This document shows, piece by piece, positions 8,010-56,552 of a stretch of DNA of 64,000 bases. Position numbers and translations under genes: made by a program. The stretch covers positions 25,730,001 through 25,794,000 of the forward strand of contig OZ024745.1 in NCBI GenBank assembly GCA_964016885.1. The letters run 5' to 3'. The notes under the pieces are model-generated. The model was not told the DNA's origin. It saw only the letters and a program-made list of their open reading frames with translations, and searched no databases. The stretch is from Eledone cirrhosa. Its lineage: Eukaryota. Within the stretch, counting starts at the first letter, position 1. The number at the start of each line of letters is the position of its first letter.

Positions 8010-8305
8010 GGTTTGAAGGTTCACCACTAGATAGAGCTGGTCAATTCCGTATGGTCAATCTTGATGTAATAATATGGAGAGTACTCAACGTAAAGCAGTT
8101 CAATCGTCTTCGTTTTTGTAGTTGGTGGTACGAGTACGGATTTGAATATTAATATTTAACTCCGTACTCGCACCACCAACTACAAAAACGAAGACGGTTA
8201 AACTGCTTTACGTTGAGATTCATACGGAACCCGGTCATTGAAATGATCATAGTATAATAAACCTTTCAAGGATTTACACAAGTCCAGCCTCCTGTTATTT
8301 TATTA
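8010..8305. mobile_element. PLE-like fragment with internal palindrome 8084-8217 and a hammerhead 3' half
   Basis: Arms ctcaacgtaaagcagtt...gagtacgga / tccgtactc...aactgctttacgttgag, then GAAA-tgatca-TA at about 8240. Flanked by (TA)n. Confidence 0.6.
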
Positions 8306-22896: not shown

Positions 22897-23005
22897 TATA
22901 GAAATGGCTTCTACAAGACTAGAATTGTTTCAACCAAAAGAAATCATAATTTCCTGATGAGTATTTTGAATGAAACAGTTACAGTCCTGTAGAAGCCATT
23001 TCTAT
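22897..23005. mobile_element. small palindromic PLE-like element with a hammerhead-like core
   Basis: Arms atagaaatggcttctacaagact / agtcctgtagaagccatttctat, with CTGATGA...GAAA at 22954-22975. Relatives at about 24710-24800 and 56674-56725. Confidence 0.5.
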
Positions 23006-23280: not shown

Positions 23281-23571
23281 ATAAAGGAAAAGAAATTGAA
23301 AATGCAACTGGAGTCTTTTAAGAATATTTATTTATTTACTCCACCGGTTTCACAGTTCTTATGATTTTCAAAAGTAAAATTGAGATGGAGGGTTTGTGGT
23401 TTTGTTGTGGTTTGTGGTTTTGTTGTATCTGAGACAAACCACAAGAAAAACACAAAAACCCTCCATTTCAATTTTACTTTTGAAAATCATAAGAACTGTG
23501 AAACCGGTGAAGTAAATAAATAGATATTCTTAAAAGATTCCAGTTGCATTTTCAATTTCTTTTCCTTGTAT
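23281..23571. mobile_element. ~290-bp palindromic PLE-like element, each arm with a degenerate U3-A8 hammerhead
   Basis: Arms of about 130 bp. tttactt-TTGAAAA-..-GAAA-ccgg-TG-aagtaaa at 23473-23516(+), mirrored at 23335-23378(-). Confidence 0.7.
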
Positions 23572-26285: not shown

Positions 26286-27222
26286 CTATCCTCGTTCTTA
26301 TACGTAACTTGCATTACAATTTAACAAATTCTATGTACTACACAGAAATATATTGGCTCTTAAAACGAACCAACAAAGAAAGCCTATTATATGCTTTGAA
26401 ATAGATGTTAAGTTTTCCTCAAATCATACCCCACCATCTTAAAAAGAAAATGCGACTTTAAATCTAGTTAAAAAACTCCTAAATTAACCTTACAATCATA
26501 AGTGGGAATACTGTATATTCATAAACAATCTTTGATCAGGGTTGCCCTTGAGGCTAAACAAGAGCAATATTTGAGATTAAATGTAGTAGTCAGTAGAGAT
26601 ATAGAGAAAATTGACGAGAAGAATATATTGTTGGATTAGCAAAATACGAAATTCAATATGCCCGAATTTTCTTGAGAAAGTTTGCTTGTATGTGCTTCCA
26701 TAATTCAATGTATGTCTGGTATTTCGTTTGTCGAGTTCAATTGTGGGTCAATAGGTCTTTTTTTTCTTCTTCTCCTTCTATCTTCTTTCCGTTACGTAGC
26801 GTTACTTCACATACTGATACTTTTCCTCTCTCTCTTTCTCTCTCTGCTTCTCGCTCACAGTCACACACACACAACTAAACTCGTTTTGTCCTCTTTTTAA
26901 TTTATCTGTCTGCCTGTCTATATATATTAGTCTAATTCCACTTTACTGTGAGTTCTGTGTAATTTTTTATTATCATTTCTTTGAATGTTTTTCTTCTCGA
27001 TTTTCTTTTCTAACCCTAACCCTGCAGCACACAGTCAGTCATGACACACAACTTCTTACATTATTGGTTTTTGGATCATCATTATTATTATTTGTGTGTT
27101 TTTCTTTACACGGTGAGAGGTGGGAGATGCTGACCCAATGCTTAGATCTACTCTCAAAGAAGGGCGTTTTTTTTCTTTCCCACGTTATTGGATACTGTCA
27201 GCTATCGAAATGATAGTCACTT

Positions 27223-27316
27223 TTTGCCGTTTACTTGCAAATGTTGCTCTGCAGTACCTACTTATATATATATATAAGTAGGTACTGCAAAGCAACATTT
27301 GCAAGTGAACGGCAAA
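27223..27316. repeat. ~94-bp palindrome centred on (TA)n
   Basis: tttgccgtttacttgcaaatgttgctctgcagtacctact-(TA)n-agtaggtactgcaaagcaacatttgcaagtgaacggcaaa. Confidence 0.9.
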
Positions 27317-27327
27317 CTATACACATA

Positions 27328-33946: not shown

Positions 33947-34140
33947 AGGAACAAGTAGAACCCCGACGGCAGAGCTCAAGCCGTTTCGACGGCTAATTCT
34001 GGTCCAGAAATAGCCGTCGAAACGGCTTGAGCTCTGCCGTCGGGGTCATACTTGTTCCTAATACCCACTCTACTACTCTAGGTATTGAGTACTTTGGTGC
34101 GTTATGGTCCATCTGGTTCCTTACCACATTTCTTTCGTTA
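33947..34140. mobile_element. palindromic pair of hammerhead 3' halves (family of 48838)
   Basis: ccccgacggcagagctcaagccgtttcgacggcta.ttctgg-t-ccagaaatagccgtcgaaacggcttgagctctgccgtcgggg, followed by the family tail. Confidence 0.75.
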
Positions 34141-38400: not shown

Positions 38401-38526
38401 GGAAAAAGTATGACCCCGATGGCAGAGCTCAAGCCGTTTCGACGGCTATTTCTGGACCTACTCTACTACCCTAAGTATTGAGTATTCTGGTGCGTTATGG
38501 TCCATCTGGTTCCTTACCACAACTCG

Positions 38527-38596
<70 letters not shown>

Positions 38597-38705
38597 TTGG
38601 AGGCGTAAAAACCAGTTAGACCATTACTCACCAGAGTACTCGATACTTGAGGCAGTAGAGTGGGTAATAGAAACAAATTCAGGCCCTCTCCTGAATATTT
38701 CATTA
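38400..38705. mobile_element. fragments of the 48838 hammerhead family around (TA)n
   Basis: Hammerhead 3' half at 38414-38458(-), tail at 38459-38530(+), diverged tail at 38590-38690(-). Confidence 0.65.
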
Positions 38706-40000: not shown

Positions 40001-40540
40001 CCTAAGAAACATTTCAAGGGTATTGTCAAAGGCAACCTTAAGATACTTGGTATTAGTGTTGAGGATTGGGAAGACGAGGCAGAGAGTAGATCTGGTTAGA
40101 GAAGTCTGGTTTATGATGGTTGTGATCATTTTGAGGCAAAAAATATTGAACATTAATTGTTTAAAAGAGCACTCAGGAAGGGTGACGTAGACTCGGTCCC
40201 GAAGATATCCGGTCAGAGCATGTCTGTAACATCTGCGGAAAGGTTGTTCTTTCTCGTGCCGGGCTTAAGAGTTCACAGTAATCAGCAGTCTGGGGCCAAT
40301 TATGTTGGTGTCTTCCCATAAAGGCCTGCAGTGTATTTGTGTCAGTTTTGCAACAAAGCCTATAGGTCTGCTGCTGGACTCAAGCGGCACACGAAAGTGC
40401 ATAAGGAGGAAGTTACGTTCAGGACAGTCCGAGAACTTTGTGTATATCACATCTGTAAAACAGTATGTAGGAGCGAGGCAGTTTTGCGGAGTCATTTTCG
40501 GGTTCATCGCCGATCAGTACAGGGTTCTGTAAAGAAGTGG
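40001..40540 (+). mobile_element. RTE LINE 3' fragment with multiple C2H2 fingers (decayed)
   Basis: PKKHFKGIVKGNLKILGISVEDWEDEAESRSG*RSLVYDGCDHFE, then CNICGKVVLSRAGLK, CQFCNKAYRSAAGLKRHTKVH and [20 protein letters not shown], with stops and frameshifts. Confidence 0.8.
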
Positions 40541-43552: not shown

Positions 43553-43781
<229 letters not shown>

Positions 43782-48762: not shown

Positions 48763-48832
<70 letters not shown>

Positions 48833-48837
48833 ATATT

Positions 48838-48937
48838 TAACCCCGACGGCAGAGCTCAAGCCGTTTCGACGGCTATTTCTGGACTACATTAGAATTTTTA
48901 GCGTGGTAAATAAATAGCCGAACTTTTCAAGGGGTAA
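48838..48937 (-). ncRNA. type I hammerhead ribozyme, U3-A8 core variant
   Basis: acccc-TTGAAAA-g..cggctattt/aaatagccg.c-GAAA-cggc(ttgagctct)gccg-TC-ggggt. GUC site, predicted cut between 48845 and 48844. Confidence 0.8.
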
Positions 48938-48940
48938 CTC

Positions 48941-48976
48941 CTTATATGGGAAGATTGTAGTTGTCAAAAGGATTGG
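48941..48976 (-). promoter_or_regulatory. CCAAT plus TATA-like elements upstream of the hammerhead
   Basis: Minus strand gaCCAATcc at 48972-48976 and caTATAAgg at 48941-48948. Confidence 0.4.
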
Positions 48977-49525
48977 TCAAAATTTCTTGTAAACACAATT
49001 AAATCTTTCATGGCAGTGGGTGGGAGTTAGGGGGTGGCTGAACTTCCCTGTAGAACAATGAGGGAGTGGGTGGAGCCGGTCAAGCGTTGAAAGTGAATTC
49101 TATACAGCAAATTCTAAGGAGCGTGTATGAAATTAGGCTAGTAAGGAAGCAGGCGACAAAAGATTCTGGAGGAATTTGAGAGTGGGACGTTATAGAATAG
49201 GTTAATAAATTGAGATTAAAAGGTAATAAATAAATAAAAAAAAATATAAAAATAATAAAATTAAATAATAAAAAGTAAAAATCTGCTATATTTAGTTGGT
49301 ATTGCGTTTTCGGCCAGTGCTTTATATAATTTACTGGTGTGGGGGTATTTATTTACCACGCTAAAAATTCTAATTTAGTCCAGAAATAGCCGTCGAAACG
49401 GCTTGAGCTCTGCCGTCGGGGTTAAACTTTTCCTATCACCCACTCTACTAGACTAAGTATTGTGTACTCTGGTGCATTGTGGTCCATTTGGTTCCTTATC
49501 ACACCTCCTTCGTTATAAATATATA

Positions 49526-49710
49526 TAATTGTTTCTACTTTTGGCACAAGGCCAGCAAATACTCAGTGTATTACTGATACTTTATTTTATCTACCCCGTA
49601 AGGATGAAAGGCAAAGTTAACCTCGGCGGGATTTGAGCTCAGATCATAAAGGAACGTAACTCTATGCTTCAAAGCATGGCGTCCGACCCTCTACCGATAC
49701 TGCCAATCCA
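49526..49710 (-). mobile_element. SINE family A
   Basis: Conserved body and head. Confidence 0.87.
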
Positions 49711-56350: not shown

Positions 56351-56550
56351 ATTATAAAGAGTTGGGACCCCGATGGCTGAACTCTTGCCTCCGTTTCAAC
56401 AGCTAGTGAGTCTGGATTAGCTGTTGAAATGGCAAGAACTCAACCGTCAGTATCCCGACTCTTTATAATATAACTATATACTCTACTACCCCAAGTATCG
56501 AGTACTCTGTTGAGTAATGGTCTAACCAGTTCCAAACTGAATCCATCCTG

Positions 56551-56552
<2 letters not shown>
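56351..56552. mobile_element. diverged palindromic member of the 48838 family
   Basis: tattataaagagttggga...tttcaacagcta / tagctgttgaaa...tcccgactctttataata, followed by the family tail. Confidence 0.6.

Follow-up and report, generated by a model that had tools for sequence, protein, structure and literature searches.

A Penelope-like retrotransposon family of Eledone cirrhosa with a variable hammerhead core and a probable transcription start within the ribozyme

Here, a stretch of 64,000 nucleotides from Eledone cirrhosa (the window; contig OZ024745.1) was analysed around a hammerhead motif, which lies within an insertion of a Penelope-like element (PLE). Taken as a whole, it appears reasonably probable to us that this insertion represents a Hydra-clade pseudo-LTR end, whose hammerhead is likely slow or helped by a protein and whose transcription probably starts from within loop II of the ribozyme itself. 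Copies of the family consist of inverted arms, target (TA)n runs, carry paired 3' ends, respect a 5' boundary at position -40 and have been amplified with all four Y3/R8 states. Two points go beyond what was known: a related branch has spread with a mismatched 3-8 pair, and most short copies stop at one spot in the ribozyme loop, which is probably a transcription start.

The Hammerhead Motif

The fold described by the original prediction was confirmed on the minus strand at 48935-48840. Based on the sequence and on fold prediction, this region (48840..48935) forms a type I hammerhead motif of subfamily W1 with a U3-A8 core, in which three helices surround the junction and which is open at stem I. 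Stem I has 5 bp (ACCCC at 48935-48931, GGGGU at 48844-48840) and is followed by the core UUGAAAA (48924..48930, with U3 at 48930, N7 at 48926 and A8 at 48925). Stem II (48868..48923) contains the pair G10.1 (48923)/C11.1 (48868), a 2x1 internal loop, 9 bp and a loop II of 33 nt, and the GAAA (48867-48864) leads to stem III (48846..48864), which has 5 bp and a 9-nt loop holding the palindrome GAGCUC (48857-48852). All of these elements are read on the minus strand. Cleavage is predicted between 48845 and 48844, behind a GUC with C17 at 48845, and self-cleavage after H17 is likely as judged from the motif. The core positions U4, G5, A6, N7, A9, G12, A13 and A14, the pair A15.1-U16.1 and H17 are present in the window copy as well as in the subfamily majorities.

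The hammerhead is both the MFE and the centroid structure of the motif, its energy taken alone being unremarkable (z -0.90). The helix probabilities range from 0.76 to 1.0 with the exception of G10.1-C11.1 (0.10). A descriptor tolerating Y3/R8 found one site in the window, which is the hammerhead itself, compared to 2 matches in 60 dinucleotide shuffles. Two copies of the stem III bearing GAGCUC are predicted to pair, by -14 to -17 kcal/mol relative to two monomers. The palindrome could therefore join two RNAs in this model, and a dimer would not be required because the monomeric stem III is stable. By eye, a pairing of GGAY in the stem I flank with AGUYC in loop II is possible as a pseudoknot. 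Elsewhere in the window, at 22954 (+), a degenerate CUGAUGA ... GAAAC-A-GU resembles a minimal PLE hammerhead, with stem I unpaired.

Focused Rfam scans of the motif gave no hammerhead match, and among 150 of 325 Rfam matches listed only repeat-driven miRNA matches were present. However, Rfam also misses a C3-G8 relative, and therefore U3-A8 is not the sole reason for the blank result. The U3-A8 pair alone is not news, as it has already been published for PLE hammerheads together with a descriptor that finds it (PMC4209133) and is a natural hammerhead variant with activity in vitro (PMC3088659).

Insertions within the Window

With positions counted from C17 at the cut site, the hammerhead is part of a left arm on the minus strand (48828..49347), a 5'-truncated 3' UTR/pseudo-LTR of about 520 nt, whose short end lies at +17 to +20, next to its (TA)n target at 48770..48827. 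The inverted right arm on the plus strand (49343..49513) starts at about -74 and comprises the 3' half of the ribozyme and an 80-nt tail up to the long end at +97. Directly adjoining this arm is a repeat at 49530-49700, which we take to resemble an octopus SINE.

All six further ribozyme copies reported for the window exist, namely at 33961(-), 34005(+), 38414(-), 43672(-), 49378(+) and, in diverged form, 56368. They are not isolated fragments, as the six partial copies represent arms of five inverted two-armed insertions, and the copy at 49378 is the opposite arm of the same insertion that carries the full hammerhead. The limits of the other four are approximate. A short insertion at 33948..34138 has a short arm (-) from -37 and a tailed arm (+) from -39; at 38401..38527, a short arm (-, from -39) is joined to a tail-only arm (+); at 43657..43749, a short arm (-) starts from about -40 after a few inverted bases and is accompanied by a tail stub (+); and at 56353..56551, an insertion of an older subfamily (C) has both arms starting near -40. 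All six copies adjoin TA runs, as had been claimed, the run at 49514 being short and imperfect. A tail-bearing arm of an older subfamily at 38593-38686 (-) adjoins the insertion at 38401 and has a TA run in common with it.

An inverted 5'-truncated copy with a tail at one end is thus present here, and such a tail is known from PLE insertions (PMC8557442, PMC3846280). In five natural copies, the tail from +14 to +97 (49431-49513 in the window) folds weakly into one or two hairpins (-11 to -15 kcal/mol). Furthermore, the window contains four unrelated near-perfect palindromes (671-773, 8075-8222, 23328-23520 and 27222-27317), two of which are centred on TA runs; these are possibly fold-back stumps of other mobile families. 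A short frame at 40322-40480 (+) displays a C2H2-like zinc-finger pattern.

The Parent Element

The parent ORF with RT and GIY-YIG, which had been proposed to exist, was found, and the arms turned out to be the pseudo-LTR of this RT-encoding element. Locus L031, the full-length member examined, begins with an inverted arm, a pseudo-LTR and the tail; the ORF that follows is frameshifted, and another pseudo-LTR then closes the locus with (TA)n. With the endonuclease part of L031 as query, 63,077 first-look candidates were obtained, and many near-identical frames of 784 codons were present among the 150 listed. These open frames correspond to 716 amino acids from the ATG and are intact in the young sister subfamily Y. 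Some of the near-identical copies form ORF-bearing tandem units of 3,531 bp, with a single RT and GIY-YIG ORF between pseudo-LTRs. Loci L098-L109 (e.g., G000:C1:437.20-437.21 Mb) are such 3,531-bp tandem arrays of subfamily Y with intact 784-codon frames.

The protein of 716 amino acids contains the motifs RLRWR, SDKTG, DIESYYASI, YRDD, CxCX5C, IY..YIG, CxxC and CxH, and the EN motif at residues 592-608 is located C-terminal of YRDD at 348-351. Pfam and PDB sequence searches with the parent ORF gave no direct match. Among 8,000 scored candidates, 2,049 homologs were found, of which the 120 listed are 38-54% identical, and a homolog with 39-40% identity has a Pfam GIY-YIG match over the stretch aligned to the parent protein. 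The Hydra clade is described by a C-terminal EN and by RWK-type, DKT, CxCX5C, CxxC and CxH motifs (PMC8557442). This set is found in the parent protein with RWR in place of RWK, and in a by-eye comparison the protein lines up with Hydra-1_Obim. On the basis of its sequence, with the published proteins compared by eye, the parent is assigned to the Hydra-clade Penelope-like retrotransposons. The Naiad clade was ruled out, as an N-terminal GIY-YIG and a CxC before the RT are absent and the EN follows the RT. A non-LTR retrozyme, which consists of non-coding tandem units with one hammerhead each, was ruled out as well, as the tandem units carry an ORF.

Abundance, Target, and Age

The family is abundant, as the original prediction had it. 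From the genome of 3.0 Gb, 99 stretches at fixed intervals (990 kb) were sampled, which contained 46 ends in 31 insertions; extrapolated from this 990-kb sample, about 94,000 insertions would be present genome-wide (95% interval 64,000-133,000). A TA run lies within 30 nt of 42 of the 46 randomly sampled ends, compared to 13% of random positions. The proposed (TA)n targeting is thereby supported well outside the window, and it is a feature of the Hydra clade.

The description of the family as young and recently mobile fits its sister subfamily Y. It fits the window copy less well: this copy differs from the W1 majority at 5 of 226 sites, and L031 is frameshifted. Of nine intact Y ORFs, three of which come from one array, eight are within 1-2 of 2,355 nt of the majority and the ninth differs by 19. 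The median distance to the group majority amounts to 1.7% for Y, 2.6% for W2, 4.6% for W1, 6.2% for E, 9.4% for B and 16.7% for D, values which are rough since the groups are mixed and chosen by similarity. Judged by these sequences, the subfamily of the window is older than the youngest one (Y), and the latter is probably still active.

Paired 3' Ends

The family has two fixed 3' ends, at +17 to +20 and at +97 past the cut site, both of which are then followed by UAU in the template (TAT in the element). Of 218 ends, 82 were found at +14 to +24, 100 at +93 and beyond and 36 elsewhere. Within 92 inverted pairs, 63 combine a short with a long end, 3 have two long ends, none has two short ends and 26 have an unclassifiable end; the combination short and long is thus seen in 63 of the 66 classifiable pairs (p 1e-15).

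The 5' ends did not clearly accumulate where the ribozyme would cut (4 of 196 at -1/+1), and therefore the genomic copies show no sign of cleavage. Minor 5'-end peaks at -12 (5/196) and -19 (4/196) map to the GAGCUC palindrome and to stem III, which suggests that two cDNAs sometimes join via these self-complementary parts.

A 5' Boundary within Loop II

The copies previously seen as 3' halves of the ribozyme are non-random truncations, which start 39-40 nt before the cut site. Among 46 random arms, 19 start at -41 to -37, 8 at -44 to -55, none at -56 to -385 and 2 further upstream. Correspondingly, when sequence tiles were matched to the 990 kb of randomly sampled DNA, those upstream of -46 gave 1-2 matches and those from -40 on gave 17-32. 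Genome-wide, the 20-mer at -39 to -20 has 37,705 matches, whereas the one shifted by 8 nt (-47 to -28) has 9,018, a number close to the 7,602 full cores. In the unassembled contigs of run X1, the summed depth rises more than tenfold across -40, from about 0.15 to more than 2 million, and collapses after +100; this depth is not a copy number, X1 may be the assembly's own sample, and runs X5 and X6 yielded 3-4 contigs only. The step at -40 is also present in the B/D and C subfamilies, despite their different loop sequence.

Position -40 is the A of the motif TTAGTYC, the part of loop II that is conserved in all groups. In the window, this initiator-like motif is located at 48881..48887 (-) with a G for the first T, and the putative start, deduced from the 5' ends of the copies, is the A at 48885. 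The initiator consensus is YYANWYY, and TTAGTYC with its A at -40 matches it. A TATA-like TATTTAT (48910..48916, -), which forms the 5' strand of stem II, lies 31 nt before this candidate start and may act as a promoter element. In W, E and Y the strand reads TATT(T/C)A, 29-31 nt upstream of the putative start (29 in Y). B and D are without a TATA-like sequence, yet they stop at -40.

It had been noticed that CCAAT and TATA-like motifs lie just upstream of the ribozyme. Both are present, but the latter is the CC(A/T)6GG box CCATATAAGG (48940..48949, -), which precedes stem I and is the majority in all six subfamilies, and CCAAT (48972..48976, -) is found in W and E and absent in Y, B and D. 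The CC(A/T)6GG box may be a CArG-type promoter element; alternatively, it might form a distal stem I together with the short-end region. The start deduced from the copy ends lies inside loop II.

A transcription start at -40 is the simplest reading of the 5' boundary, and the half-ribozyme copies are probably cDNAs that ran off a transcript starting inside the ribozyme. A cap-derived extra G at the -40 junctions was inconsistent (7/17, 3/16 and 1/10). A splice acceptor or trans-spliced leader at TTTAG/TCC was rejected, as there is no constant upstream sequence in the truncated copies. The pseudoknot between loop II and the GGAY of the stem I flank, proposed by eye, could be a second reason for the conservation of the loop motif.

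Subfamilies and the 3-8 Pair

The 193 unique full motifs, obtained from 235 matches, were sorted into six groups: D (C/U3 with G8; most diverged and old), B (UUGAUAA), W1 (UUGAAAA; the group of the window), W2 (UUGACAA), E (CUGAGAA, with a non-pairing C3.A8) and Y (UUGAGAA; the youngest). Exact core patterns of 19 bases matched 7,602 times genome-wide, with 5,729 for U-A, 1,780 for C.A, 76 for U.G and 17 for C-G, and reversed controls gave 0 matches. The C.A pattern may also catch a one-base deletion, but in most of the E loci retrieved C3 is still preceded by four C. In the contigs of run X1, C at position 3 accounts for about 24% of the depth.

In W1, U3 and A8 are each present in 48 of 49 full copies. 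U3-A8 as a hallmark, which the original prediction extended to the whole family, holds for this majority. The wider family, however, includes a C3.A8 subfamily, and G8 is the majority in the old subfamily D alone. A Watson-Crick U-A pair is found in the window copy and in W, B and Y, a C.A mismatch in E and a wobble in part of D. A non-pairing 3/8 in the consensus, named beforehand as speaking against the claim, is thus seen in sister subfamilies and not in that of the window. The canonical CUGANGA, described as universal for the Hydra clade, which is a descriptive rather than a defining feature, is not the rule here (C-G in 17 of 7,602). These 17 matches were rejected as proof of compensation within W, E and Y, as about 24 would be expected from point mutation of C.A; D is separate.

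In a pseudo-LTR tree of 181 copies with positions 3 and 8 masked, Y nests inside E. Group E is defined by C3, hence its state is given by construction, and the masked tree provides independent support. The same placement is seen in an endonuclease tree of the 59 copies for which an ORF end could be linked (support of 0.95 for E+Y and of 0.96 for young Y), with a weakly supported deep order, D among the W1 rows, no B rows and one mislinked row (39%). The endonuclease identity to Y is 69-72% for D, 84-91% for W1, 88-92% for W2 and 82-94% for E. Furthermore, several successive C.A variants exist.

In an alignment of 49 rows (8 per group and the window; 48 distinct), 91.4% of the cells pair, compared to 30-50% for slid structures. 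Three pairs of stem II show a change of both partners in 14-16 of the 48 rows, and the 3-8 states across the 48 rows are UA in 30, UG in 6, CG in 5 and others in 7. Pairs changed on both sides number 6 versus 5.2 in shuffles, and the covariation of stem II is mainly one lineage split. The subfamily majorities share U4, G5, A6, A9, G10.1, GAAA and GUC, while N7 takes A, G, U and C; the counts of core conservation are partly imposed, because the full-copy descriptor tolerated only one core mismatch. Subfamily E is predicted to misfold (alternative hairpin 0.84). We read these sequences as reflecting selection on the fold and on most of the core, with the 3-8 pair constrained only loosely. Given the conservation of the remaining core and the covariation of stem II, a genuine ribozyme is likely, although, with a 3-8 pair that varies, a weak or dispensable one.

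Proposed Mechanism and Alternative Readings

In the proposed mechanism, the RT-endonuclease would nick a (TA)n run on each strand and prime at two internal sites of the RNA. The usual transcript would begin at -40, so that the two cDNAs would reach its end after about 60 and 140 nt; their head-to-head joining would account for tens of thousands of stumps with half a ribozyme. Only read-through RNA of tandem copies would give rise to longer arms that contain the whole ribozyme, the left arm in the window being an example. The cDNAs of such RNA must cross the scissile bond, and an element whose RNA was cut rapidly would lose its template. Weakened 3-8 pairs would be tolerated because copying crosses the cut site, which makes slow cutting harmless or even useful. 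The 5' ribozyme of the normal transcript, lacking its 5' half, could not cut by itself. A more far-reaching version is tentative, a serious possibility rather than an expectation: the core promoter lies within the hammerhead, read-through RNA alone has the whole ribozyme, and selection for slow cutting allowed the master lineage, as it spread, to pass from C-G/U.G to U-A, on to C.A and back to U-A. If true, about 10^5 stumps would map the start site as well as both RT priming sites at single-base resolution.

Alternatively, the motif might be an ordinary active U3-A8 hammerhead with C.A as a side branch, the boundary at -40 being an RT stop at a contact between stem I and loop II. U-A is indeed the largest class (5,729 of 7,602), the window copy folds cleanly, and natural U3-A8 variants are active in vitro (PMC3088659). 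The possible pseudoknot of loop II with the stem I flank, seen by eye, could provide the stop. However, the cDNAs end at the 5' side of the loop motif, after copying has gone through stem III as well as the 3' strand of stem II, and a structural stop is not expected there. Since the youngest subfamily also nests inside the C.A group in two trees and several successive C.A variants exist, we consider this alternative unlikely.

A loss of cleavage in all A8 subfamilies, with the fold kept as an RNA scaffold for an RT dimer or through overlap with promoter DNA, would explain why 5' ends do not accumulate at the cut site, and also the amplification of a mismatched, misfold-prone lineage. It would also agree with insertion in vitro, which needs no cleavage (PMC11167929), and with the Naiad PLEs, which proliferate without canonical hammerheads (PMC8557442). 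It is nevertheless improbable, given that U4, G5, A6, A9, G12, A13, A14, U16.1 and C17 are fixed and N7 is free across the subfamilies. This catalytic pattern is kept despite endonucleases differing by up to 30%, and 3/8 stays pyrimidine-purine, returning to U-A in the youngest branch. That the short inverted copies represent a non-autonomous (MITE-like) DNA transposon with half a ribozyme in its terminal repeats by chance is suggested by inverted arms flanked by TA, but it can hardly be correct and is already largely refuted: the ends are unequal (+20 versus +97), the junctions vary between copies, the shortest arms have tens of bases and the longest kilobases, and the arms are the pseudo-LTR of an RT-encoding element.

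In this family, the 3/8 positions occur in four natural states with little change in the surrounding scaffold, the RT-endonuclease is intact and very young, and the genome records on a very large scale where copying began and ended. It thus becomes testable whether spread requires cutting, whether the 5' copy is switched off by a promoter that lies within the ribozyme, and whether a single RT dimer employs two priming sites, with one on each DNA strand.

Comparison with Known Systems

The role of PLE hammerheads is an open question (PMC8557442, PMC11167929). Searches of the open-licence literature gave no account of a C.A lineage, nor of a PLE hammerhead that contains a start site, an absence that is weak evidence. 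With the EN+ PLEs of the Hydra clade such as Hydra-1_Obim (Craig et al., 2021; PMC8557442), the family has in common a single ORF of about 710 aa with a C-terminal GIY-YIG, the RWK-type, DKT, CxCX5C, CxxC and CxH motifs, insertion into (TA)n, a hammerhead in the pseudo-LTR, an inverted truncated copy and a tail at one end. In contrast, all 26 Hydra rows of table S2 of that study have CUGANGA, loops II of 3-10 nt and stems III of 3-4 bp, whereas the family of the window has YUGANRA, a loop II of 31-33 nt, a stem III of 5-6 bp, a palindrome of 6-8 nt, an 80-nt tail and 3.5-kb units. It is distinct from Hydra-1_Obim by its different ribozyme and, as compared by eye, by a related but distinct protein.

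The Cercyon PLEs of Schistosoma mansoni (Cervera and De la Pena, 2014; PMC4209133) likewise have a U3-A8 core in the pseudo-LTR, a long helix II and about 1,300 matches, mostly single truncated copies and some close pairs on opposite strands. They differ by minimal hammerheads without a real helix III, and the available part of that report describes neither a C.A lineage nor a start site within the motif. Core covariation is shared with the natural U3-A8 variants (Perreault et al., 2011; PMC3088659). For the Penelope elements of Adineta and Drosophila, TATA/Inr motifs in the pLTR and a promoter in the pseudo-LTR have been described, as proposed here (PMC3846280, PMC2377424); the available parts of these two papers and of PMC3088659 make no mention of a start site overlapping loop II of the ribozyme.

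A mechanistic parallel is offered by the anole element Poseidon PAc (Anolis carolinensis; Frangieh et al., 2024; PMC11167929), for which the tail is defined by two internal sites of RT initiation that lie downstream of the hammerhead, both strands are nicked in AT-rich DNA and the uncut RNA is the template. In vitro, the ribozyme of this anole PLE is assisted by the protein and dispensable for insertion (PMC11167929). Poseidon PAc belongs to another clade and has a canonical C3-G8 core, and the available part of the study reports neither the pairing of one short with one long end per insertion nor a fixed 5' boundary. Its priming proceeds without homology, whereas in the family described here a UAU microhomology to (TA)n is present at both ends.
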